From NCBI GenBank assembly GCA_038213805.1, contig JBBQSO010000096.1:1-19016 (forward strand): a DNA stretch of 19,016 nucleotides. The letters run 5' to 3'. This document shows, one piece after another, positions 2,563 through 19,016 of the stretch. Position numbers and translations under genes: made by a program. Under the pieces are notes generated by a model, which saw only the letters and a program-made list of their open reading frames with translations, had not been told where the DNA came from and did not search any database. This DNA is from Planctomycetota bacterium. GTDB taxonomy: Bacteria > Planctomycetota > UBA11346. Every line of letters starts with the position of its first letter. Positions within the stretch are counted from its first letter, which is position 1.

Positions 2563-3966
2563 TCACTTCACCAGCTTGGCGATCAGCGCCGTGATGAGCA
2601 GGTTGACCAGGGCGATGTTGAGCATGACCTTCCAGCCCAGCGCCATGATCTGGTCGTAGCGGAAGCGCGGCAGCGTCCAGCGCACCCAGATGAACAGCCA
2701 GGCCACCGCCAGGGTCTTGCCGATCACCACGTTGAGCTGCACCGCCGCGGTAACGATGCCAACCCACAGCGGGTAGACCGGGTGGGCATCGACCACCATC
2801 GCGCCGACCGGCTCGGTATGCACCAGCGCGGCCACGGCCATGCCGGCGAACATCAGGACGATGCCGAGGAACAGGAAGACGCTGACGTAGACGCCGTACT
2901 CCTTGAGGCGCAGGTCGCGGTCGCTGGCGTCGAGCTTGGCGTAGTGCTTGCGGCGGCCCGAGACCAGGTGCGCGAAGCCAAGCAGGCCGAAGCCGGTGAT
3001 CACCAGCATGCCGCCGGCGACCAGCCCGAGGTTGGCCTGCAGCCAGGCGGTGTCGAGGTGCAGCCACGGCTTGTCCAGCCCGCCCACCGGCAGGGCGAAC
3101 GGCACTAGGTCGTAGCCGCCCAGGTAGAGCGTCGCGATCAGCGCCGAGGCGACCAGCACGTGCAGGTATTCCGCGGTCATGAAGCACATGAACTTGGTCG
3201 AGCCGTATTCGGTGTGGAAGCCGGCGACCAGCTCCGACTCGCCCTCGGCGACATCGAAGGGGTTGCGGTTGCACTCCGCGAACATCGAGACCAGGAAGAG
3301 CAGGAAGCCGACCGGCTGGACGACGATGCCCCAGGTGTGGTGCGCCTGCCACTCGACAATGTTGGTCAGGCTCAGGTCGCCGACGATGAGCAGCAGGCCG
3401 AGCACCGACAGGCCCATGCTGACCTCGTACGAGATCATCATCGCCGAGGCGCGCATGCCGCCGAGCAGGGCATACTTCGAGTTCGACGCCCAGCTGCCCA
3501 GCACCACGCCGTAGACCGACAGCGAGCCGATCGCGAACAGCACCAGCAGTCCGGCGTTGGCGTCGAAGATCTGGCCGGAGACCGTCACCGGGCCGTTGGC
3601 GCCGGCCCAGGTCATGGGCGCGAACCACGGCAGCACGGACGGCGTCATCAGGCCGGTGATCACCGGGATCGCGGGCGCGAGGATGTAGAACCACTTGTGC
3701 GCGAACGGCGGGGTGAAGTTCTCCTTGAAGAGCAGCTTCACCAGGTCGCAGGCGTTGTAGATCATGCCGAACGCACGCAGGCGGCCGATGATCGGCAGCG
3801 GGATGTACGCGCGGTGCGGGCCGATGCGGTCCTGGATGAAGGCGGCGCCGCGGCGCTCGGCCAGCACCAGCAGGGGCAGCAACTGGAAGAGCAGCGCGAC
3901 GATCAGCACCGGCTTGAGCACGGTGATGATGACGTCGAGGTTGCCGTAGAGGAAGTCCACGTTCAC
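2563..3966 (-). CDS. nuoH: NADH-quinone oxidoreductase subunit H (467 aa, with internal insert)
   Basis: ERRGAAFIQDRIGP, WASNSKYALLGGMRA, ISYEV, AECNRNPFDVAEGESELVAGFHTEY and WVRWTLPRFRYDQIMALGWK. Start placed at GTG 3966, which overlaps the nuoG stop (GTGA); the ORF-track start at 4077 lies inside nuoG. Confidence 0.95.
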   Translation of the reverse strand: MNVDFLYGNLDVIITVLKPVLIVALLFQLLPLLVLAERRGAAFIQDRIGPHRAYIPLPIIGRLRAFGMIYNACDLVKLLFKENFTPPFAHKWFYILAPAIPVITGLMTPSVLPWFAPMTWAGANGPVTVSGQIFDANAGLLVLFAIGSLSVYGVVLGSWASNSKYALLGGMRASAMMISYEVSMGLSVLGLLLIVGDLSLTNIVEWQAHHTWGIVVQPVGFLLFLVSMFAECNRNPFDVAEGESELVAGFHTEYGSTKFMCFMTAEYLHVLVASALIATLYLGGYDLVPFALPVGGLDKPWLHLDTAWLQANLGLVAGGMLVITGFGLLGFAHLVSGRRKHYAKLDASDRDLRLKEYGVYVSVFLFLGIVLMFAGMAVAALVHTEPVGAMVVDAHPVYPLWVGIVTAAVQLNVVIGKTLAVAWLFIWVRWTLPRFRYDQIMALGWKVMLNIALVNLLITALIAKLVK

Positions 3967-5612
3967 ACTCCTGCGGCGACCGGCTTGGGCGCCTCGACGA
4001 GCTGGGCGCCCAGAGGGCCGATGGCACGGTAGGTGAGGCCGGCGAACTGCGGCACGCGCGCCACCGCCGCGCGCCATACCTCAATCTCGCTCGACCACGC
4101 GGGGAGCGCGGCGCCGGCCGCGGCGCCGATGGCTCGCAGGGTCAGCCAAGCCGGTTCGAGTTCCGGGTTGGGCACCGCCGGGCAGGCCTGGAGGAGCTGG
4201 ACGCGCCCGTTGCAGTTGACCATCGAGCCGCGCACCTCGGCCCAGGCGCGGATGCCGAGCGCGACCGTAGCCTTGGCCACGGTCGCATCCTGCCAGCTGG
4301 ACAGCACGATGCGGCTGGGGATTGCCTCGAGCTTGGCGGCCTTGGCGGCGTCGGCCTTCCACAGGTCGTTGCCGACCACCACCAGCGCGGCGAACTCGCC
4401 GGCGCGCGCGACCAGGGCGTCGAGGTTGTCGGCGATGCCGAGCAACTGCAGGCCCTTGCGGTTGGCGACCGGGTCGCCGCTCTTGGCGATACCGTCGGCC
4501 TTGCCGACCGGCAGCCACGAGCCACCGAAGACTTCAGCCTGCGCGCCCAGCGCCTCGGCGAGCGCCAGCACCGCGACGTTGTCCTCGGTGGTGAGATGGC
4601 CGCTGGCGACCAGCGCGATCTTCTTGCCCGCGGCCTTGGCCGCGGCGAGCGCCGCTCCTGCGGCGCTGGTGGCCGCGGCGAGGGTCACGTCGACGCCGGC
4701 GTGCTTGCCGTCGGCGAGACGGTCACGGTTCAGATCCTGGTAGAGCATGCGCGTGCTGTTGGCGATCCAGCTCTTGTTGACCGCGGCGTTGCGGCGCGGC
4801 ATCAGGCGCCACACCTGGCCGTTGTTGTACTCGACGGTCAGGTTCGCGCCGAGCGCGTCGCTGGGGTCGATCGACTCGACGCTCTTCAGCATCCACACGC
4901 GCTGCTGGAAGCGGAAGTGCTTCGCGGTGAGCGCGCCCACCGGGCAAATGTCGGTGGTGTTGAGGTCGTACTCGTGGGCCAGCGGGTCGCCAGGGAAGGT
5001 GGTCAGGTAGGCGTGGTCGCCGCGGCCGGCGATCTCGAGCTGCGGCGACTTCGCGACGTCGTCCATGAAGCGCACGCAGCGCGTGCAGATGATGCAGCGC
5101 TCCTGGTCGAGGATGATGGTCGGCCCCAGGTCGATCTTCTTGCCGCCGCGCTCGACGCCCTTGACGTCGGTGAAGCGGTGGTCGGCGCCGCCCTTGTACT
5201 GCTTGCCAACCTCGTCATCCAGGCGGCTCTCGTGCCGGCCCTGGCCCATGTAGTGCTCTTGCAGGGTGCATTCGCCGGCCTTGTCGCAGATCGGGCAGTC
5301 CAGGGGATGGTTGACGAGCAGGAACTCCATCACGCCCTTGCGCACCTTGACGATCTTTTCACTCGACACCTGGGTGCGCACCTTGAGTCCGGGCGCGGTC
5401 TGCAGGTGGCACGAGATGCCCAGCGCCCAGCCGCGCGGGCCTTCGGTCTCGACCAGGCAGATGCGGCAGTTGCCGGCGACCTTGAGATCCTGGTGGTAGC
5501 AGAACGCCGGGGTGTCGGTCGCGGCCTGGTTGCGCAGCGCCTCGATGAGCTGGATGCGCGGCGGGACCTGCACGTCCTTGCCGTCGACGGTGATGGTGAT
5601 GAGGTCGGCCAT
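3963..5612 (-). CDS. nuoG: NADH-quinone oxidoreductase subunit G (short form, 549 aa)
   Basis: N1b motif CYHQDLKVAGNCRIC...C, N5 motif HPLDCPICDKAGECTLQ, N4 motif RCIICTRCVRF...DICPVGAL, then a molybdopterin-oxidoreductase-like region (AEVRGSMVNCNGRVQ). Confidence 0.94.
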   Translation of the reverse strand: MADLITITVDGKDVQVPPRIQLIEALRNQAATDTPAFCYHQDLKVAGNCRICLVETEGPRGWALGISCHLQTAPGLKVRTQVSSEKIVKVRKGVMEFLLVNHPLDCPICDKAGECTLQEHYMGQGRHESRLDDEVGKQYKGGADHRFTDVKGVERGGKKIDLGPTIILDQERCIICTRCVRFMDDVAKSPQLEIAGRGDHAYLTTFPGDPLAHEYDLNTTDICPVGALTAKHFRFQQRVWMLKSVESIDPSDALGANLTVEYNNGQVWRLMPRRNAAVNKSWIANSTRMLYQDLNRDRLADGKHAGVDVTLAAATSAAGAALAAAKAAGKKIALVASGHLTTEDNVAVLALAEALGAQAEVFGGSWLPVGKADGIAKSGDPVANRKGLQLLGIADNLDALVARAGEFAALVVVGNDLWKADAAKAAKLEAIPSRIVLSSWQDATVAKATVALGIRAWAEVRGSMVNCNGRVQLLQACPAVPNPELEPAWLTLRAIGAAAGAALPAWSSEIEVWRAAVARVPQFAGLTYRAIGPLGAQLVEAPKPVAAGV

Positions 5613-5641: not shown

Positions 5642-6159
5642 CTACTTGGCTCCGGCGGCGGGCTGGGGGGCGGCGGGCGGCAGCGCGGGCGCGGCGGCCT
5701 GCTGCTCCTGCAGGCGGGCGGCAATCTTGGCGCCGAGGGCGGCGCCCCAGGTCTCGCCGGCGGCCATGGTGTCCTTGATGATCAGCGGCTGCGCGGCGAC
5801 GAAGTTACGGCCGCCCGCGGTCTCGTAAAAAGCGATCGCGGCTGCGACGTCGGCGGCGGTGAGGTGCTGCTCGTAGGCCGGCACCGCCATCTCGACGAAG
5901 TCCTTGGGGTCGATCTCCGCCACCACCTGGTCCCAGAAGGACTGCGGGACGTGCGGGGCGCTGACCTTGAAGCTGCCGACCATCTGGGCGACCACCTGCA
6001 GCGCGATCTTGTCGGCACCGGTGAGCAGCAGCAGCTTGCGGATGTCCTCGCGGCGCGCGGGTCCGGACGCGGCCGGCGCCGGCGCCGGCGCCACTGCCGG
6101 CTGCTCCACCACGGCGAAGCCGGACTGCAGCGCGAGACTGAGTACGAGCAGGCGCACCA

Positions 6160-6160
<1 letters not shown>
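5642..6160 (-). CDS. DUF2059-like protein with probable N-terminal signal peptide (172 aa)
   Basis: ATG at 6160 overlaps the nuoF stop (TGATG). N-terminus MVRLLVLSLALQSGFA looks like a signal peptide. The core FWDQ...AVPAYEQHLTAADVAAAIAFYETAGGRNFVAAQPLIIKDTMAAGETWG matches the DUF2059 pattern as I recall it. Ala/Pro linkers flank the core. Confidence 0.8.
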
Positions 6161-7506
<1,346 letters not shown>

Positions 7507-7510
7507 GGCG

Positions 7511-8557
7511 TCAGACCTTCGCCGGGGCGGGAGCGGGAGCCGGAACGGGCGGGGGCGGCGGGTTCTCGCCGGTGGCGGTGACCACCGGGCTGGGCCGCGC
7601 GGCGCGGTCCTTCTCATGGGCGATCACGCGGTAGCTGGCGCTGACGCCGACCGCCAGGGTGTCGACCGCCTTCTGATCCTTGGGACCGGGCGTGGCCAGC
7701 TCGCGCCACGACGCGCCCTGGTCGTCGGAGCGCTCGACCACGACCTTGGAACAGCCACCGTCGTTGATCCAGCTGAGGTTGATGGTCGAACCAACCGCCT
7801 TGGCCGCGACCTTCAGCGCGGGCGGCGCCGGGCTGTATCCGGCCGGCAGGACCTTGCCGGCCGCACCGGTCGCGCCCGGGTGGCCCTTGGTGTTGAGCAC
7901 CGGCTTGCCGATGGCGTCGGCGATGACCGGCTGCTTGCTGGCGCCGGGATTCTTGGCGTGCTCCGCGCGCAGGAAGGCGAGCCACGCGTCGAGAATGGCC
8001 GCGGTCGGGTGGAAGTCGGGGACTTCGAGGTGCGCCTCGCGCAGTTCGCCCTGGCCGAGCGTGTGCGGCACCGGGCCGATCGCCTGGTCGTCGATCATCA
8101 CGCCGGGGCCAGAGCCACACAGCGCCAGGCACTCGACGCGCACCAGGGTGAAGAGCCCGTCCGCGGAGGTGCCGCCGGCGTGCACGCCAAGGGCCTTTTC
8201 CAGATGCGCGATGAGGTCTTCCGAACCCTGCTGGAAGCAGCACATGGTCTGGCAGATCTGGACGAGGTGCTTCCCCGTCGGGACCTGCCGGTACATGGTG
8301 TAGAACTCGGTGACCCCGAAGGCGTGCGCGGGCGACACGCCGCTGACTTCAGCGGCCCACTTGATGCCGGTGCGGGGCACCCAGCCAAACTCCTCCTGGA
8401 CCAGCCACAGCGCCTGCAGCAAGGCGCCGCGCTTGACCGGGTAACGGCGCCACAGTTCCTCGACGCGGGGCTGGTGGCGGGCCATGCGGCCCTGGACCAC
8501 CTCGGGCGTGAGGTCGGCGGGCTGGTGTTCAGCGGGATTGACGGTGCATCCACTCAC
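7511..8557 (-). CDS. nuoE: NADH-quinone oxidoreductase subunit E with C-terminal FN3-like extension (348 aa)
   Basis: RYP...ALLQALWLVQEEFGWV...GVTEFYTMY and N1a ligands CQTMCC...VECLALC. GTG start with AAGGA upstream. About 190 residues follow the second Cys motif, including an FN3-like domain. Confidence 0.93.
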   Translation of the reverse strand: MSGCTVNPAEHQPADLTPEVVQGRMARHQPRVEELWRRYPVKRGALLQALWLVQEEFGWVPRTGIKWAAEVSGVSPAHAFGVTEFYTMYRQVPTGKHLVQICQTMCCFQQGSEDLIAHLEKALGVHAGGTSADGLFTLVRVECLALCGSGPGVMIDDQAIGPVPHTLGQGELREAHLEVPDFHPTAAILDAWLAFLRAEHAKNPGASKQPVIADAIGKPVLNTKGHPGATGAAGKVLPAGYSPAPPALKVAAKAVGSTINLSWINDGGCSKVVVERSDDQGASWRELATPGPKDQKAVDTLAVGVSASYRVIAHEKDRAARPSPVVTATGENPPPPPVPAPAPAPAKV

Positions 8558-8594: not shown

Positions 8595-9788
8595 TCATCG
8601 ATCCAGCTCCCCGGCGATGATGTTGATCGAACCGAGCGACGCGGCGACGTCGGCGAGCATGCCGCCCTCGATCATCGCGCCGTACGCGGCGTACTGGGTG
8701 AAGCAGGGCGGCCGCACCTTGATGCGGTAGGGGTTGGTGCCGCCGTCGGAGACGATCAGGAAACCGAGCTCGCCGTTGGCCGCCTCGGTGGCGTCGTAGC
8801 ACTCACCGGCGGGCGGGCGCACGCCCTCGTAGACCAGCTTGAAGCTGTTGATCAGCGCTTCCATGTCGTGGTAGACCTGGTCGCGGCTGGGCAGGCTGAG
8901 GCGCGCGTCGGTGGTGTTGATCGGGCCGGGCTTGAGCTTGCCCAGCGCCTGGCGGCAGATCGACACCGACTCGATCATCTCGTAGATGCGCACCATGATG
9001 CGGTCGAAGGTGTCGCCGGTGGTGCCGATGACGGTGTCGAACTGGTACTGGTCGTAGCCGTAGTACGGCTCGTCCTTGCGCAGGTCGCGATCGACGCCCG
9101 AGGCGCGCAGGCACGGGCCGGTCCAGCCCCAGCTAATCGCGTCTGCAGCACTGACCACGCCGACGTCCCTGGTGCGGTCGATGAAGATCTTGTTCTTCTC
9201 GATCAGGCCGCGCACTTCCTTCACCGCGCTCTCGATCTTGAGCAGCACGCCGGCGACGTCGGACGCGAAGTCCGGGTAGACGTCACGGTACATGCCGCCG
9301 ATACGGGTCACGGTGTTGGTCAGGCGCGCGCCGCAGAGCTTCTCCCAGATCTTGTACACCTCTTCGCGGGTGTTGAAGAAGTACCAGAAGTTGGTCAGGG
9401 CGCCGAGGTCGACAAGGTTGGTGCAGGTGCACACCATGTGGTCGATGATGCGCGAGAGCTCGCTGAGGATGACGCGCACGATGATGCAGCGCTCGGGCAC
9501 CTCGACGCCGAACATCTTCTCGACCGCCTTGCAGAAGCCGATGTTGTTCATCATCGCGCTGCAATAATTGAGGCGGTCGGTGTAGGGCAACACCATCGAG
9601 TAGGTGCCCTGCTCGACCATCTTCTCGAAGCCGCGGTGCAGGTAGCCCATCTCGAGCGCCGAGGCGACAATGGTCTCGCCGTCGAGGGCCGCGAAGATGC
9701 GCAGCGTCCCGTGCGTGGCGGGGTGGCTGGGGCCGACGTTGACCGTCATCAGGTCGAGCGGCTCGCCGGCGGGGGTGAGGACCTTCAT
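8595..9788 (-). CDS. nuoD: NADH-quinone oxidoreductase subunit D
   Basis: 397 aa; NVGPSHPATHGTLR, GYLHRGFEK, YTDRLNY, GWTGPCLRASG, EAANGELG and C-terminal GELDR. No Ni-binding CxxC pairs. Start overlaps the nuoC stop (ATGA). Confidence 0.97.
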   Translation of the reverse strand: MKVLTPAGEPLDLMTVNVGPSHPATHGTLRIFAALDGETIVASALEMGYLHRGFEKMVEQGTYSMVLPYTDRLNYCSAMMNNIGFCKAVEKMFGVEVPERCIIVRVILSELSRIIDHMVCTCTNLVDLGALTNFWYFFNTREEVYKIWEKLCGARLTNTVTRIGGMYRDVYPDFASDVAGVLLKIESAVKEVRGLIEKNKIFIDRTRDVGVVSAADAISWGWTGPCLRASGVDRDLRKDEPYYGYDQYQFDTVIGTTGDTFDRIMVRIYEMIESVSICRQALGKLKPGPINTTDARLSLPSRDQVYHDMEALINSFKLVYEGVRPPAGECYDATEAANGELGFLIVSDGGTNPYRIKVRPPCFTQYAAYGAMIEGGMLADVAASLGSINIIAGELDR

Positions 9789-10576
9789 GATTTGGCTCCC
9801 GCGACCGTGCCGGCCGGGGCCGCGCCCGCTGCGCCGGTGGTGGCCGGCGCGCCCGCGCCGACCGCGCCGGCGCCGCCCGAGGTCTTCACCGTGGCCGTTG
9901 TGCGATCGCCCAGCGGCACACTGCCCACCGCGCTGATCGGTACGCCGTTATGCGCTTCGCCGCGCTCGACCACGGTGTAGCCGCGACGCTTGAGCTGGGC
10001 CTCGAGCTGGTCGACCATCGGGTCGTTGGTTGAGAGCTTCTGCCGCTTCTGGCAGGGGTAATCTTTGCGCAGCGGATGGCCGACGAACTCGTGGTGGTTC
10101 AGCAGGCGCTTGAGATTGGGGTGGCCGATGAAGACGATGCCGTACTGGTCCCAGGTCTCGCGCTCGGCCCAGTCGGCGCTCTTGAACAGGTCGTGCAGGC
10201 TGGGGACCTTGGCGTCCTCCTCTTCGACCCACACCTTGAGCGTCACGCGGTGGCGATAGGCCACGCTCTTGAGCGGGTAGGTGACCGCATAGCGCGCGCC
10301 GCGGTGGTCGGGAAAGGCCAGGTAGTCGATGCCAACCACGTCGAGCAGCATGCCGAAGCGCAGTTCGGCGTCGTCGCGCAGGTGGCGGACCACCTCGCGC
10401 AGGCGGCTGGCCGGCACGATCACGGTCAGGCCCCAGCGATCGCGCGGGTCGCGCTCGGGGTTGAAATGCGCCAGTTTCGCGAGCAGTTGCTCGGCGCTGA
10501 GGCCGGGCTGGATGGCCTGGGTGGTGATGGCGGTGCTGGCGCCGTGCGCCGCGGCCGCGGGGGGATGCGCGCTCAT
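9785..10576 (-). CDS. nuoC: NADH-quinone oxidoreductase subunit C (263 aa, low-complexity tail)
   Basis: LLDVVGIDY and [27 protein letters not shown]...GHPLRKDYP. Start placed at ATG 10576, overlapping the nuoB stop (ATGA). Confidence 0.95.
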
Positions 10577-11091
10577 ACGCCGACCGTCCGCTGTTCCTTG
10601 ATGGATTCCTGCGCAATCTTGTCCTGCAGCTGGACCACCGCCTCGAGGAAGGCCTCGGGGCGCGGCGGACAGCCGGCGATGTAGACGTCGACCGGGATGA
10701 TCTCGTCGATGCCGGGCACCGTGCAATAGCAGTCATAGAAGCCGCCCGACGTGGCGCAGGCGCCGGCCGAGATCACCCAACGCGGCTCGCACATCTGTTC
10801 GTAGATGCGGCGCAGCACCGGGGCCTGCTTGTAGGTCACCGTACCGGCGATGATCAGCAGATCGGCCTGGCGCGGGCTGAAGCGCACCAGTTCCGCACCG
10901 AAGCGCGAGATGTCGAACATCGAACTGACCACGCCCATGAACTCGATGGCGCAGCAGGCGGTGCCGAACGGGAACGGCCACAGGCTGTTGCGGCGACCCC
11001 AGTTGACCACCGCATCGACGCGGGTGGTGATGAAGCTGTCGCCGAGGTTGATCTCGGGGGTGACGCCGGCGGGGACGGGCTTGTAAGTCAT
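10573..11091 (-). CDS. nuoB: NADH-quinone oxidoreductase subunit B
   Basis: 172 aa; N2 ligands [12 protein letters not shown] and GCPPRPE, plus [14 protein letters not shown] upstream of the ATG. Confidence 0.97.
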
Positions 11092-12004: not shown

Positions 12005-12544
12005 ATGCACAGCGTCACCTGCCAGATTTGCGGCAAGCGTCCCGCCACCACCCACCTCACCGAACTCGATGGCGAGAGCGCGGCGGGCCGGCAGGAGCTC
12101 CACCTCTGTGCGACCTGCATCCAGCGCCTGGACCTGAAGCTGGAATCCGGGCCCCCGGCGATCGCCACCATCCTCAGCATGAAGGCCGAGGACGTGGGCG
12201 GCGCCAAGCCCCTCACGCTGACCGCCACCACCGAGGACGGGGCGGACGAGCGCTGCCCGCACTGCGGCCTGTCCTTCGGCGAGTTCGGCTCGGGCAAGCT
12301 GTTCGGCTGCCCGCACGACTACACCGCCTTCAGTGTGCAGATCGACCTGCTGCTGGGTCGCTACCACGGCACCACCCGCCACATCGGGCGCGGGCCGCGC
12401 AACGCCCCGGCGGCGGGCGACGACCTGTCCTCGCGGCGCACCCTGCTCGACAACGCCCTGCGTGCGGCGGTCGCTGGCGAGCACTACGAGGACGCCGCGC
12501 GCCTGCGCGACGAGCTGCGCCGCCTCGATCGGCCGGGCGCATGA
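12005..12544 (+). CDS. mcsA: McsA-like protein-arginine kinase activator (Zn-binding motifs + UVR domain)
   Basis: CQIC, CATC, CPHC and GCPHDY motifs, HG...HIGRGP, and a C-terminal UVR motif AVAGEHYEDAARLRDEL. Stop overlaps the mcsB start. Alternative start: GTG 11999. Confidence 0.92.
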   Translation: MHSVTCQICGKRPATTHLTELDGESAAGRQELHLCATCIQRLDLKLESGPPAIATILSMKAEDVGGAKPLTLTATTEDGADERCPHCGLSFGEFGSGKLFGCPHDYTAFSVQIDLLLGRYHGTTRHIGRGPRNAPAAGDDLSSRRTLLDNALRAAVAGEHYEDAARLRDELRRLDRPGA

Positions 12545-13608
12545 GCCTGGACGACCTGCTGGCGCGGCCGGCGGCCTGGCTGGACAGCCCGGGCGCGCAC
12601 GGCGGCATCGCCGTCTCCAGCCGCATCCGCCTGGCGCGCAACCTCTCCAGCTTCGCCTTCCAGCGCAAGCTGAGCAAGGTCCGCCAGCAGGAGCTGGTCG
12701 GCCGCCTGATGGAGACGACCGCGCGCGTCACCGGCTGGAAGGACGCGCGGCAATTGCGCCTGGGCGCGCTCACCGAGCTGGAGCGCACCGCCCTGGTCGA
12801 ACGCCAGCTGGTCTCGCGCGACCTCGCCAACGGCAAGCATCCCACCGGGGTGTTCATCAGTCGCGACGAGATCCATTCGCTGATGTTCAATGAAGAAGAC
12901 CACGTACGCCTGCAAGTGATCAGCGCCGGGCTGTGCAGCAACGCCAACCTTGAGCTGGCGGTGGCCCTCGACCAGGCGTTGGAGGGCGAGCTGGGCTGGG
13001 CTTGGCACGCCCAGTACGGCTACCTGACCGCCTGCCCGACCAACGTCGGCACCGGCCTGCGCGCCTCGGTAATGCTCCACCTGCCGGCGCTGGCCGAGAG
13101 CGGCGAGCTGAAGCAGGTGCTGCGCGGGCTGACCAAGCTGCACATGACGGTGCGCGGCCTGCACGGCGAGGGCAGCGAGCCCACCGGCCACTATTTCCAG
13201 ATCAGCAACACCCGCGCCCTGGGCGCCAGCGAGCGCGCCATCGTCGACCAGCTGAATGAGACCGTCGAGCGGCTGATCGCCTACGAGCAGCTCGCCCGCC
13301 AGTCGTTGCTGACCACGCAGCCGTGGCGCCTGGAGGACAAGGTGTTCCGCGCCTGGGGCATGCTCACCCACGCGCGTAGCCTGACCACCGAGGAGCTGAC
13401 CGAGCAACTCAGCTGGGTGCGCCTGGGCGTGGCCCTCTCGCTGCTGGAGTGGCGGAATTGGAAAATCCTGGATAGAATCTTCTTGCAGTGCCAGCCGGCC
13501 CACCTGCAATTGCAGCATGCGGAAGCCGGCGAGACCGAGCAGCGCGACCGCCTCCGTGCGGATTTGGTACGGAAGTGGCTTTCTTCACCACCGGCCTCCG
13601 CGAACTGA
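12541..13608 (+). CDS. mcsB: McsB protein-arginine kinase (ATP:guanido phosphotransferase family, 355 aa)
   Basis: SSRIRLARNL, NEEDH, GYLTACPTNVGTGLRASVMLHLPAL, VRGLHGEGS, FQISN and C-terminal QPAHLQ...RDRLRA. ATG at 12541 overlaps the mcsA stop (ATGA). Confidence 0.95.
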   Translation: MSLDDLLARPAAWLDSPGAHGGIAVSSRIRLARNLSSFAFQRKLSKVRQQELVGRLMETTARVTGWKDARQLRLGALTELERTALVERQLVSRDLANGKHPTGVFISRDEIHSLMFNEEDHVRLQVISAGLCSNANLELAVALDQALEGELGWAWHAQYGYLTACPTNVGTGLRASVMLHLPALAESGELKQVLRGLTKLHMTVRGLHGEGSEPTGHYFQISNTRALGASERAIVDQLNETVERLIAYEQLARQSLLTTQPWRLEDKVFRAWGMLTHARSLTTEELTEQLSWVRLGVALSLLEWRNWKILDRIFLQCQPAHLQLQHAEAGETEQRDRLRADLVRKWLSSPPASAN

Positions 13609-13667
13609 GCCATACTGCGTTCAACACTCGCTGTTCGAGCCATCCTGACACCCCGGGTCCCCCTGCC

Positions 13668-16238
<2,571 letters not shown>

Positions 16239-16285
16239 TTGGGAATAAGGTTAGGCACGTCACTCTGGTCGCCGGAAGTATCCGG

Positions 16286-16313
16286 TTGACCAGGGGGGCG
16301 AGGGGTCTAGATT
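16286..16313 (+). promoter_or_regulatory. Sigma70-type promoter for tRNA-Lys
   Basis: TTGACC-16 nt-TAGATT followed by a GC-rich stretch (ctgccccc), 19 nt upstream of the tRNA; this layout is typical of stable-RNA promoters. Confidence 0.7.
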
Positions 16314-16332
16314 CTGCCCCCTCAAGCGGTTG

Positions 16333-16408
16333 GCGCGATTAGCTCAGTTGGTAGAGCAAGGGATTCTTAATCCCTGGGTCCATGGTTCGAGTCCATGATC
16401 GCGCACCA
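16333..16408 (+). tRNA. tRNA-Lys (anticodon CTT)
   Basis: 76-nt cloverleaf: acceptor GCGCGAT/ATCGCGC, D arm GCTC-AGTTGGTA-GAGC, anticodon arm AGGGA-TTCTTAA-TCCCT, T arm CATGG-TTCGAGT-CCATG, discriminator A and encoded CCA. Confidence 0.97.
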
Positions 16409-16413
16409 TAACG

Positions 16414-16461
16414 ACTGTGCCACAGGGACTTAAAAGAAATTTTAAGTCCCTGTAACACAGT
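16414..16461. repeat. Long inverted repeat immediately 3' of the tRNA
   Basis: actgtg-cc-ACAGGGACTTAAAA-gaaa-TTTTAAGTCCCTGT-aa-cacagt: perfect 14-bp inner arms (16422-16435 / 16440-16453) plus 6-bp outer arms. Confidence 0.9.
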
Positions 16462-16481
16462 TTGTATCAGTGTGCAAATTG

Positions 16482-16509
16482 ACCCGGATGGTTTTCCATC
16501 CGGGTTTTT
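16482..16509 (+). terminator. Rho-independent terminator downstream of the tRNA
   Basis: ACCCGGATGG-tttt-CCATCCGGGT hairpin followed by a T run. Confidence 0.75.
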
Positions 16510-16589
16510 CAACCAGATTGTTGTTAAAATTATTTTTAATTCCATGGGTCTGCTATCCCAAAGCGGTGAGGGGTTCCTAATGTACAAGG

Positions 16590-16889
16590 GTGCGCGCTCA
16601 CTCGAAGGCAACGCGACCGCTCAATCCACTCGGGATCGCCCTTACCAGGCTTCTCGAGGCTCGCGGTATGAGCGATGCGGATTTCTGCCGGAAAACCGGA
16701 CTCAGCCCTGCGCTGGTCAGCATCATCAAACGTCGCCCCCCCAGCAAGCTGCCGAAGCAGGTCCAACCCATCCGGTGGGCCAAAATTCTCGACCTTACGA
16801 GCACCGAAACGACCGCGCTGCACATTGCCGCTCTTCTGGCTTGGTCACCAGAAGGCGTATTGGAACTCGTGACCAAACAAAAAACTTAA
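16590..16889 (+). CDS. Xre/Cro-like helix-turn-helix protein (99 aa)
   Basis: LGIALTRLLEARGMSDADFCRKTGLSPALVSIIKR...IRWAKILDL fits the Xre HTH pattern. GTG start. A possible extended -10 (TGtTAAAAT) lies at 16522-16530. Confidence 0.75.
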   Translation: MRAHSKATRPLNPLGIALTRLLEARGMSDADFCRKTGLSPALVSIIKRRPPSKLPKQVQPIRWAKILDLTSTETTALHIAALLAWSPEGVLELVTKQKT

Positions 16890-16970
16890 GCTGCTCCAAT
16901 CACTGGGGTTGGATCCGTCTGGGATCGGGCTCTCTAGGACGCACCTCTAGAGGCAGTCCTGAAGGCACAT

Positions 16971-17414
16971 CTATCCAGTCAGAATCTCTCTGTTCCGAAT
17001 TCTGCCCGTGGCGTAGGCCAAGACAAATTCGTTCCCGTAATGAACAAGCCCAGACTCTTGAGTTGCCTCCCGAAGGAAGTCGACATCAACCGGTGCGCGC
17101 TGGCGCTCTTCCTCATCAACGAGGAACGCCGAGAGTTCAGCCTCTTTGCCGCTGTGCGCCAATCGGCAGAGATAACGCGGAATTTGCCCCATCGGTTCTT
17201 CGCAGAGATTCCACAACTCGTCCTTCAAAGGCTTCATGGCCATCGAATAAGCCGGGGCCGAGCCTCCCCTCACATGATCTTGATGTCGTGCACCCTCCAC
17301 TACAGCAACACAGTCCATGCAATTCTTATAGAGAAGATCGACGCGGCCCACCCTGGCGCAGATCTCATTCGAGTGGCATGCCATGATTTTCAACCGCGAC
17401 CTTTTCGCTGTCAT
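16971..17414 (-). CDS. Hypothetical protein (true start may be ATG 17243 or 17237)
   Basis: The C-terminal ~90 aa (MAMKPLKDELWNLCEE...EFVLAYATGRIRNREILTG) has globular, protein-like composition and converges on the HTH gene. No family recognised. Confidence 0.35.
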   Translation of the reverse strand: MTAKRSRLKIMACHSNEICARVGRVDLLYKNCMDCVAVVEGARHQDHVRGGSAPAYSMAMKPLKDELWNLCEEPMGQIPRYLCRLAHSGKEAELSAFLVDEEERQRAPVDVDFLREATQESGLVHYGNEFVLAYATGRIRNREILTG

Positions 17415-17448
17415 TCATCTGATTTCAGCGTGAAAACACCGCAAATAT

Positions 17449-17991
17449 ATGGTCAAACGAGCTCGAATAGATTTCGATCAATACGACATGTGCACTACTC
17501 AGCACGGTCTCATCGCCACCTTTACCCGCCTTTCTCGTGATGGATTGATCGAACGGACCGACGGAAAACTCAGATTCCTCGGTCCGGCAGCAGGTGACGA
17601 CACCATGATTCTGGGGTGCCAATTCGCGCTCTCCTCTCATGGAAAATTGTTTGCCCGCGTGTTAGACATGCTCGTCTTGGCATCAACGGATAAACCGCCT
17701 GCATGGGCCCCCATCGGTTCTCCGATGCTATCATGGCGGAGTATTCCTTTCTCGATGCGCACCATCGCCGAAGGATCTTACCAGGATATCCGCGCTTTAG
17801 CCTCCGTGCATTCACAATTTCAGCCTGATCAAAGATTTTCTATTTCGTTGAACGTGACCACTCAAGCAAAGACATGTGCGCACGATCTGCTTCCGAGGAA
17901 TTCCAAACTCACGTCACCAATTCCTGATTTTTTCGACCGCTCATCAACCAACCCCCTGGAATCCGGATTTAAAGGAGGTTTAATTTCATGA
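17449..17991 (+). CDS. Hypothetical protein (180 aa)
   Basis: Long ORF in AT-richer DNA whose stop overlaps the next ORF's start (ATGA). No family confidently recognised; start uncertain. Confidence 0.4.
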   Translation: MVKRARIDFDQYDMCTTQHGLIATFTRLSRDGLIERTDGKLRFLGPAAGDDTMILGCQFALSSHGKLFARVLDMLVLASTDKPPAWAPIGSPMLSWRSIPFSMRTIAEGSYQDIRALASVHSQFQPDQRFSISLNVTTQAKTCAHDLLPRNSKLTSPIPDFFDRSSTNPLESGFKGGLIS

Positions 17992-18206
17992 CCATTAAAT
18001 CACGATTTGAAGGAATGTCTGTTTTGTACGTGTCTGATAACGACGCAGTCATTGCAATTCTTCCTACATCTGAAAAATTGTTTTTCAGCGTAGGCACATC
18101 AGAAACCGATGCGCTCTGGAATCTCCTAAAAGACGAGGCGTTTACTAATAAAGAAAGGAATGAAATCTTGCAAAACCACGTAAATATGACAATCGTTGGA
18201 ATTTGA
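17988..18206 (+). CDS. Small hypothetical protein (72 aa)
   Basis: Strong Shine-Dalgarno AAAGGAGG (17971-17978) 9 nt upstream of the ATG; composition looks globular. Confidence 0.6.
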   Translation: MTIKSRFEGMSVLYVSDNDAVIAILPTSEKLFFSVGTSETDALWNLLKDEAFTNKERNEILQNHVNMTIVGI

Positions 18207-18219
18207 CCATGGCCAGAAA

Positions 18220-18248
18220 TTGCACATGTGCTCATCCGTGAATATTGT
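18220..18248 (+). promoter_or_regulatory. Candidate sigma70 promoter for the metallophosphoesterase gene
   Basis: TTGCAC-17 nt-TATTGT; a perfect 10-bp palindrome, GCACATGTGC (18222-18231), overlaps the -35 box. Confidence 0.4.
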
Positions 18249-18320
18249 ATAGACAAAGAACCTATATACTGACTGTCACGCGTCGTCAATGCGGTCATAC
18301 CCGCGAGCGGAAAACCTCAC

Positions 18321-19016
18321 ATGAGGATTCATGTACTCTCCGATCTTCATCTAGACCATACTCCATACACCTATACGGCCCCGCCAGGCGGAGCGGACCT
18401 CGTCGTTCTCGCGGGAGACATCGCCTCAGAAACCGAGGCCGGTTGGTCACGGCTTGGTCAGTTCCTGCAGAAACTTAGCGATTGCGGGAGCCGTATAATC
18501 TATGTTCCTGGAAACCATGAATTTTATGGGGGCGATGTCGATCAAACTCTCATTAGACTCCGTACCCTTTCAATGCGCTTTCCAAGCTTGTCGGTTCTCG
18601 ATTGTGAATGGACTACGATTCTTGGATTCCGGATCGCCGCTGCAACCTTGTGGTCAGATTTTTCGCTGGATAAGGATAGCAATGGAGGACTTCGCGCAGA
18701 AGCATGTATATCCGATTTCACACACATATCCGAAGCCGGGTCGCGTTTGACGTGGAAAGAGATGGCAAGCCGCTCTCGCAAAGCACAACAATTTCTAAGG
18801 CTTCAGGCCCCGCAATCGGATTTGGTTATCACGCATTTTTTATCGAGCATACATTCAATTGATATGCAATTTTCAAATAGCACTCTGAACTCTTATTTCG
18901 CGGTAGACCTTTCACGGCTTGTCTCTGAAGTGGATGGCATTTGGATTCATGGACATACTCACACGTCATGCGACTACAAATTAGGAAGGTGCCGTGTGAT
19001 TTGCAATCCGCGAGGA
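18321..19016 (+). CDS. Calcineurin-like metallophosphoesterase (3' end beyond the window)
   Basis: Not in the ORF track because it has no stop in the window. Manual translation gives 232 open codons: MRIHVLSDLH...DLVVLAGDI...IIYVPGNHEFY...ATLWSDF...VITH...WIHGHTH...VICNPRG, which covers all five metallophosphoesterase motifs. Confidence 0.93.
   Translation, partial: MRIHVLSDLHLDHTPYTYTAPPGGADLVVLAGDIASETEAGWSRLGQFLQKLSDCGSRIIYVPGNHEFYGGDVDQTLIRLRTLSMRFPSLSVLDCEWTTILGFRIAAATLWSDFSLDKDSNGGLRAEACISDFTHISEAGSRLTWKEMASRSRKAQQFLRLQAPQSDLVITHFLSSIHSIDMQFSNSTLNSYFAVDLSRLVSEVDGIWIHGHTHTSCDYKLGRCRVICNPRG

Follow-up and report, generated by a model that had tools for sequence, protein, structure and literature searches.

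A fibronectin type III domain fused to the complex I subunit NuoE in a class of Planctomycetota and in a second bacterial group

NuoE carries the [2Fe-2S] cluster N1a in the NADH-oxidising tip of complex I, and fibronectin type III (FN3) domains are best known from secreted and surface proteins. A 19,016-nt stretch of DNA from a planctomycetal metagenome-assembled genome (MAG), here called the window (contig JBBQSO010000096.1 of assembly GCA_038213805.1; 180 contigs, 5.5 Mb, 90% complete), raises the question of what the one is doing on the other, for its nuoE gene encodes a protein whose C-terminal part had been read, from the letters of the sequence alone, as an FN3 domain. We asked whether that domain is genuine, whether the fusion is natural, how far it extends and what it might do at the site of NADH oxidation. 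We find it near certain that the protein, composed of a NuoE core, a helix, a linker, an FN3 domain and a tail, is a natural and conserved fusion. Its parts are the following.

nuoE coding sequence: 7511..8557, minus strand; 348 aa and a TGA stop, with a GTG start (open reading frame and translation).
Thioredoxin-like [2Fe-2S] core: 8072..8461, minus strand; residues 33-162 (Pfam PF01257, E 2.1e-40, 138.4 bits against a cut-off of 24.8).
Post-core segment: 7925..8065, minus strand; residues 165-211, with an invariant FHP (182-184) and an amphipathic helix at 186-202 (W192, L196) (AlphaFold2 (AF2) model and conservation).
Linker: 7838..7924, minus strand; residues 212-240, with a conserved DAxG...LNTKGHPG motif (residues 221-228, 7874-7897).
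FN3 domain: 7565..7837, minus strand; residues 241-331 (AF2, Foldseek, VIA-align, hhalign).
Pro/Ala-rich tail: 7514..7564, minus strand; residues 332-348, of variable length and without an invariant column.

The identity of the gene is clear from its core and its position. Profile searches match the core to NDUFV2, Nqo2 and NuoE chains with E values down to 7.5e-37, and the four cysteines C102, C107, C143 and C147 are invariant, in agreement with the usual spacing of the ligands of the NuoE cluster. The gene lies between nuoD and nuoF in a minus-strand operon ordered nuoA, B, C, D, E, F, an open reading frame (ORF) with a DUF2059 domain, nuoG, H, I, J, K and L, and no other gene in the 90%-complete genome matches PF01257. 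Since this is the only NuoE of the genome and the nuoA-L operon is full, the FN3 domain would be expected to accompany the cytoplasmic N-module. The start position agrees with the M-S start in 39 homologues, and no stop interrupts the frame between the PF01257 core and the PPPPPVPAPAPAPAKV tail, the FN3 domain included. The sequence-only reading had quoted a peptide from 7571-7831, which is exact (codons 243-329 of a gene on the minus strand), and had described an uninterrupted frame ending 4 nt before nuoF; this is borne out by the ORF, in which the TGA stop at 7513-7511 is followed, after 4 nt, by the nuoF ATG at 7506.

Structure prediction and profile comparison agree that the C-terminal domain has the FN3 fold. 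Modelled separately from an alignment of 43 rows, residues 240-335 form a sandwich of seven strands at a predicted local distance difference test score (pLDDT) of 87.9 and a predicted template modelling score (pTM) of 0.79. The full-length AF2 model, built on a 40-sequence alignment (mean pLDDT 73), places the same seven strands between 250 and 330 (250-255, 258-263, 271-277, 285-288, 296-300, 306-315 and 326-330; block pLDDT 75-95), preceded by the helix at 186-202 (block pLDDT 73-93). A Foldseek search of the PDB returned 195 matches at E <= 1e-3, and every match shown was an FN3 domain or an FN3-containing protein, among them fibronectin, titin, myomesin, Robo3, Dscam and monobodies (TMq 0.65-0.77, best E 4.7e-6). 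Alignment of the full-length model to solved FN3 domains by VIA-align gave Z scores of 11.8-13.9 and root-mean-square deviations of 1.6-3.3 A over 83-95 residues; all of these matches were confined to model residues 238-337, and they include intracellular FN3 domains such as that of the integrin beta4 tail. A profile of the clade, compared with the PDB, matched the titin FN3 domains A77-A78 at residues 244-331 (E 2.6e-5). The proposal that the C-terminus of NuoE is a genuine FN3 domain, which modelling of residues 240-330 had been suggested to settle, is thereby upheld.

Comparison with other bacterial proteins leads to the same superfamily. A profile of the extension alone, searched against 1.8 billion representatives, matched 3022 proteins at E <= 0.001, and most of the best 150 of these are 600-6800 aa long and match in 4-40 stretches each. 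Twelve of the best 150 were scanned with Pfam, and all seven multi-repeat proteins among them carry PF00041 (E 6.7e-30 to 3.3e-284). The clade alignment matches an FN3 repeat of one such sequence (P0211) in hhalign at 95.3% probability (E 2.1e-8), and the two share the pattern L-x-W ... VERSxDGG ... YRV. Pfam fn3 (PF00041) itself gives no match at E <= 1, either on whole NuoE or on residues 220-348, and the NuoE domain is absent from the seven PF00041 matches of the genome at E <= 0.01; the sole other Pfam row for NuoE is a chance-level DNA_binding_1 (E 0.25). Because the profile and fold matches hold while Pfam fn3 fails on the single sequence, the domain is a diverged member of the FN3 superfamily. 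The hallmark residues of FN3 domains (a Trp in strand B, a Leu near strand E and a Tyr in strand F) are all present, with W263 ending strand B, L301 following strand E and Y309 in strand F, and all three are invariant in 40 sequences. On the C-C' turn, residues 277-284 read S-D-D-Q-G-A-S-W and fit by eye the Asp-box pattern, S-x-D-x-G-x-[TS]-W; this ERSDDGG or Asp-box-like turn is typical of a bacterial FN3 subtype and hence probably structural. Searching the genome with the FN3 domain alone for paralogues returned only the domain itself. In the ESM Atlas, residues 165-348 scored 0.80-0.85 at best, below the meaningful 0.9, and the FN3-named clusters found there serve as a lead only.

Could such a protein be an artefact? 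That an assembly chimera or a frameshift had joined an unrelated FN3 frame to nuoE has next to no chance of being right, and the one hint towards it is that the window comes from a MAG of 180 contigs. When residues 165-348 served as the query, 94 protein clusters matched out of 4847 candidates, 91 of them with PF01257 and 225-368 aa long and the remaining three being short fragments; the architecture recurs in these 94 and in 29 further clusters, in 23 species-level genome loci and in 20 metagenomic loci. Contigs from three DNA runs in two studies bridge the core, the FN3 domain and nuoF free of gaps: a contig of 866 nt spans 7282-8147, across the junction, with 0 differences to the window, and one of 1059 nt from a second study, 5% divergent and ungapped, spans 7264-8322, which answers the call for a coverage check near the junction. 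More than 120 clusters and the bridging contigs thus refute the artefact. Two further observations come from the same comparison of contigs. Coverage peaks at 7171-7341 stem from conserved nuoF sequence of other organisms, and a 225-nt contig from a peat metatranscriptome (RNA library, X19) lies on 7524-7749, over the second half of the FN3 domain and the tail, showing 11 differences and, at 7551 in the tail, an in-frame deletion of 3 nt, a hint of transcription in a relative.

The fusion is conserved along its whole length. Forty full-length clusters (P0001 and 39 others chosen across the range of E values) could be aligned throughout the extension. Mean pairwise identity is highest in the core (0.77) and next highest in residues 241-331 (0.64), with the linker at 0.52, the tail at 0.51 and residues 165-211 at 0.48. 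Within residues 241-331, 20 of the 91 columns are invariant, and an identity of 0.64 against 0.77 for the core indicates that selection on the FN3 domain is purifying.

How widely is this architecture distributed? NuoE was matched in 263 of 301 sampled Planctomycetota genomes, and, among the matches listed, those that continue beyond the core were found only in the window's own family, f1, where 14 rows, the window included, reach residues 328-348 and one (G100) stops at residue 233. Among the best 150 of 450 matches in these 301 genomes, none of the 135 from outside f1 goes beyond residue 172 without an internal stop. The class to which the window belongs consists of family f1 alone, and 39 of its 48 genomes, representing 15 of its 18 genera, have the extension. 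The nine class genomes without a match comprise two cut by contig ends, three of genus g246 without an orthologue, and four that are 72-89% complete. The g246 genomes (G326-G328) have NuoE-like genes only 33-34% identical. At the g246 loci (G326-G328; L027-L030), several NuoE-like genes of 26-34% identity adjoin NuoF-like genes and are possibly hydrogenase or formate dehydrogenase modules. In several other families of Planctomycetota, frames of ~590-700 aa and ~1030-1130 aa with NuoE- and NuoF-like matches (for example G024:C177, G021:C349, G054:C20 and G079:C129) suggest fused NuoE-NuoF or larger modules. Two sets of apparent exceptions were set aside: rows with an in-frame TGA in genus g4 proved to be alignments that continue beyond the end of nuoE into the start of nuoF, which overlaps it, not internal stops, and two candidate FN3-less forms have C-termini that look, by eye, frameshifted (P0165) or unrelated and of low G+C (P0206).

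The 23 species-level genome loci are all titled as Planctomycetota MAGs except two labelled Candidatus Kuenenia. A second group of 29 further FN3-NuoE clusters was reached through the divergent match P0185, and two of these clusters carry source names, Fibrobacteria bacterium and Fibromonadaceae bacterium. The second group keeps the whole layout together with D214, G217, G225, P243, P246-A-L, W263, E275, W284, D294, Y309, R310, R318, A320 and S323; compared with the window, its cores are 48-56% identical and its FN3 domains 30-38%. In a maximum-likelihood tree of 131 core columns (12 f1, 9 second-group and 21 other Planctomycetota sequences, with 4 from g246 as outgroup), the FN3-bearing sequences of both groups fall into a single clade with support of 99/99, separate from the 21 other planctomycetal NuoE. 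Because the two groups share one clade of the core tree, these sequences suggest that the fusion arose once and is now present in two phyla; the FN3-less sequences in the tree are all from Planctomycetota. The sequence-only reading had known of no NuoE with an FN3 extension. This holds for the literature, in which we found no published account of a NuoE-FN3 protein or of such a C-terminal extension of NuoE (subscription journals lay outside the searches); a genome paper on Melioribacter names NuoE and Fn3 once each. In the genomes the architecture is less singular than that reading implied, being fixed throughout one clade of class rank and found again in the second, Fibrobacteria-labelled group.

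Is the domain doing anything? The sites of conservation would fit a binding function. Clade-invariant residues outside the FN3 core fall, on the AF2 strand map, into three loops: B-C (N265, D266), C'-E (P292, D294-Q-K296) and F-G (E315, R318, A320, P322, S323). D294 and the R-x-A-[RK]-P-S motif are retained in both FN3-bearing groups. In canonical FN3 topology these three loops share the pole near the N-terminus of the domain; from this topology and the strand map, the conserved loops are predicted to cluster at one FN3 pole, beside the conserved linker. In NuoE modelled alone, linker residues 212-237 have a pLDDT below 50 and are predicted to be disordered, and D214, G217 and G225 are invariant across both FN3-bearing groups; a linker that is conserved but predicted to be disordered would imply a bound partner.

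The tail shows a different pattern. It is missing in some genera, and the K-A or K-V conserved at its very end is specified by AAGG(C/T). The last nuoE codons contain GAAGG at 7516-7520, which resembles the Shine-Dalgarno site of nuoF, and GAAGG, GGAGG or AGGAG precedes the start of nuoF by 7-12 nt both in the window and in each of the 13 loci with a resolved start codon (13 of 18 loci; L008, L014, L016, L017 and L023 were left out of the count). The conserved end of the tail would thus be a ribosome-binding site of nuoF and not a feature of the protein. A variable tail whose last residues are explained in this way, and a domain that the Pfam fn3 model no longer detects, are what one would expect if the FN3 domain were a functionless passenger of evolution, retained because it is harmless. 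We consider this very unlikely in view of the 20 invariant columns among the 91 of the domain, the loop residues kept between groups whose FN3 domains are only 30-38% identical, and the retention of the extension in every genus that has an orthologous NuoE.

If the domain binds something, the neighbouring genes of the operon offer candidates, of which the following two bear on the argument; the second gives context and lies outside the fusion.

nuoF: 6160..7506, minus strand; 448 aa, translationally coupled to nuoE (Pfam Complex1_51K, SLBB, NADH_4Fe-4S).
NuoF C-terminal tail: 6163-6225, minus strand; residues 428-448, with a terminal RPGAFW (residues 443-448, 6163-6180).
Short nuoG: 3963..5612, minus strand; 549 aa (Pfam Fer2_4, NADH-G_4Fe-4S_3, Fer4_Nqo3, Fer4_NDSU1).

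NuoF has changed together with NuoE. In the clade it ends in ...KNPxHAxxR...RPGAFW, with G445, A446 and F447 invariant in 19 sequences (18 clade homologues and the window). In the phylum sample, residue 448 is reached by five f1 rows and, among 145 other listed rows, by one, with an internal TAG. Among 80 metagenomic loci, 20 contain the full NuoE-FN3 architecture; nuoF follows directly in 13 of these 20, of which 12 also hold a complete short nuoG and one (L067) ends just past nuoF. All 13 NuoF beside FN3-NuoE end in RPG[AIG]FW at an overall identity of only 59-69%, and the RPGxFW end was found in none of the 28 complete NuoF beside plain NuoE in these loci. Taken together, the RPGxFW end is present in 31 of 31 complete NuoF beside FN3-NuoE versus 0 of 28 without. 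A word-based search with NuoF residues 405-448 gave 21 matches from 57 candidates and is uninformative on the tail elsewhere; the five matches with source names are all Planctomycetes or Planctomycetota.

The other candidate is NuoG, since the sequence-only reading had suggested that the FN3 domain structurally stands in for the C-terminal part absent from the 549-aa NuoG of the window. This NuoG aligns to just the first ~300-390 residues of solved NuoG chains of 674-910 aa, and all 12 complete NuoG beside FN3-NuoE in metagenomic loci are short, at ~520-540 aa by match position. The difficulty is that short NuoG is not peculiar to the fusion: at about 500-600 aa, it occurs in many planctomycetal families with a NuoE that goes no further than its core. 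A NuoG search matched 58 of 121 sampled genomes, and many matches from outside f1 extend to ~535-549 in frames of ~506-697 aa, in genomes whose NuoE ends at the core; in five of them (G099, G094, G005, G089 and G064) NuoG reaches 535-548 of 549 residues in frames of 538-597 aa, and the NuoE matches end at 155-164. Metagenomic loci likewise pair NuoG frames of 472-558 aa with plain NuoE (L079, L087, L089, L099 and L111). Because short NuoG occurs across the phylum without FN3, the idea of a replacement is weakened, and of the explanations that credit the domain with a function we hold it the least credible, a shade below even the passenger.

We therefore return to NuoF and to the reading that we prefer, to which we give an even chance: the FN3 domain would be an accessory domain built into the N-module and docked within complex I. 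The linker motif and one FN3 pole, formed by the B-C, C'-E and F-G loops (N265/D266, P292/D294-Q-K296, R318/A320/P322/S323), would dock onto neighbouring surfaces of complex I, and the leading candidate for the contact would be the lineage-specific C-terminal tail of NuoF (KNPxHAxPR...RPGxFW). The effect might be to stabilise NuoE-NuoF or to help assemble it, as is the case for supernumerary subunits and extensions of other complex I enzymes. Several observations weigh against this. The co-occurrence of the NuoF tail and the FN3 domain is one evolutionary event and not an independent replication, because the two traits go back to a common ancestor. In the full-length model of the monomer the FN3 domain has no fixed orientation relative to the core (pTM 0.43), and the GHPG motif of the linker is absent from the second group. 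Six loci of low G+C (0.40-0.46; L055-L060), closest to the Fibrobacteria-labelled proteins, have no nuoF or nuoG within the locus, up to 6 kb on each side; in all six of these Fibrobacteria-type loci nuoE-FN3 is solitary, and the link to NuoF is not readable there. In one of them (L058, with nuoE-FN3 at 6001-6990) the neighbours are phosphofructokinase, YfhO, an LPG-synthase-like membrane protein and an ABC transporter.

The main rival of the docked domain makes the FN3 domain a flexible adaptor on a linker of ~30 residues, which would bring a cytoplasmic partner from outside the enzyme to the NADH site instead of packing on complex I; an NADH-producing dehydrogenase, a regulator and another respiratory enzyme are conceivable partners. 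The sequence-only reading had likewise proposed a domain that docks a partner enzyme, or else one that shields FMN/N1a. FN3 domains commonly mediate contacts between proteins, linker residues 212-237 are predicted to be disordered and leave the orientation of the domain undefined, one FN3 pole is conserved, and nuoE-FN3 is able to stand outside the nuo operon. Against the adaptor, no neighbouring partner gene is conserved (the neighbours differ among the window, L031 and L058), no FN3 paralogue was found in the genome, and the invariant residues of the linker fit a fixed docking site as well as they fit a free tether. We regard the adaptor as unlikely, though it deserves more weight than the passenger or the replacement of NuoG. 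Somewhat more doubtful still, and ahead of those two, is a combination in which the FN3 pole and the RPGxFW tail of NuoF would together form a docking platform at the NADH tip that recruits another protein (such as a dehydrogenase, a regulatory protein or a further respiratory enzyme), with the solitary nuoE-FN3 of the Fibrobacteria type serving a module other than nuo; if true, this platform would be a built-in complex I adaptor for substrate channelling or control.

How does the docked accessory domain, the preferred reading, compare with known systems? The window protein resembles canonical NuoE/Nqo2/NDUFV2 (PF01257) in its core at residues 30-164, its four cysteines and its position between nuoD and nuoF. 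It departs from them in length: solved bacterial chains have 155-245 aa, whereas the window NuoE adds ~180 residues including a folded FN3 domain, and the plain NuoE of 60 metagenomic loci end 4-53 residues past the core. With the bacterial FN3 repeats of the 'VERSxDGG...YRV' type (PF00041) it shares fold and sequence pattern; those repeats, however, stand in tandem in long proteins with carbohydrate-binding or hydrolase domains, whereas the window has a single copy on a cytoplasmic redox subunit, with conserved loops of its own (KDQK, R-x-A-[RK]-P-S) and a score below the Pfam threshold. The supernumerary N-module subunits of mitochondrial and alpha-proteobacterial complex I (NDUFV3, NDUFS4, NDUFS6 and NDUFA12) offer an analogy, in that the role proposed here would likewise be to place extra mass on the NADH-oxidising module; they are separate polypeptides of other folds, and no homology is claimed. 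In complex I of Mycobacterium smegmatis, the core subunits NuoB, NuoC, NuoH and NuoJ carry lineage-specific extensions that bind adjacent subunits and have been proposed to make the enzyme, or its NuoEFG module, more stable (PMC10068793). In that study's account of extensions these are helices and tails, none of them on NuoE (PMC10068793), unlike the complete, autonomous FN3 domain that NuoE carries in the window.

Several features of the window lie outside this argument. The DUF2059 ORF between nuoF and nuoG (5642-6316, minus strand; domain at residues 139-195, E 1.4e-13) contains an internal stretch, MVRLLVLSLALQSGFA, that resembles a signal peptide, and was found only in the two closest relatives (L002, L003); in other members of the clade nuoF and nuoG are adjacent (L031) or separated by a different insert (~0.7 kb in L006, ~1 kb in L014). 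The NuoC ORF (9785-10726, minus strand) has ~100 residues ahead of its Pfam domain and a Gly/Ala-rich C-terminus of low complexity. Divergent from the nuo operon stands a gene for an ATP:guanido phosphotransferase (12028-13608, plus strand; PF00217, McsB-like), followed by one for a double-AAA+ ATPase of the ClpC/ClpB type with Clp_N and UVR motifs (13488-16238, plus strand). Over 16001-19016 the G+C content drops from ~0.66-0.71 to 0.56, 0.52 and 0.47; the ORFs at 16472-17386 and 17449-17991 have no Pfam match, the final ORF of the window encodes a calcineurin-like phosphoesterase, and this low-G+C segment may be foreign DNA.

The usual picture of bacterial complex I is that of a minimal core of 14 subunits, and additions confined to single lineages show by what route accessory mass came to be recruited, on a large scale in mitochondria. 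Against that background, an FN3 domain has here become a fixed part of the cytoplasmic electron-input module, accompanied by a matching change in NuoF, in an old fusion that two phyla share. Because Pfam misses the domain, databases list such proteins as plain NuoE, which leaves a gap in annotation. The fusion offers a tractable case for the role of supernumerary domains at the NADH site and for the movement of complex I genes between phyla.

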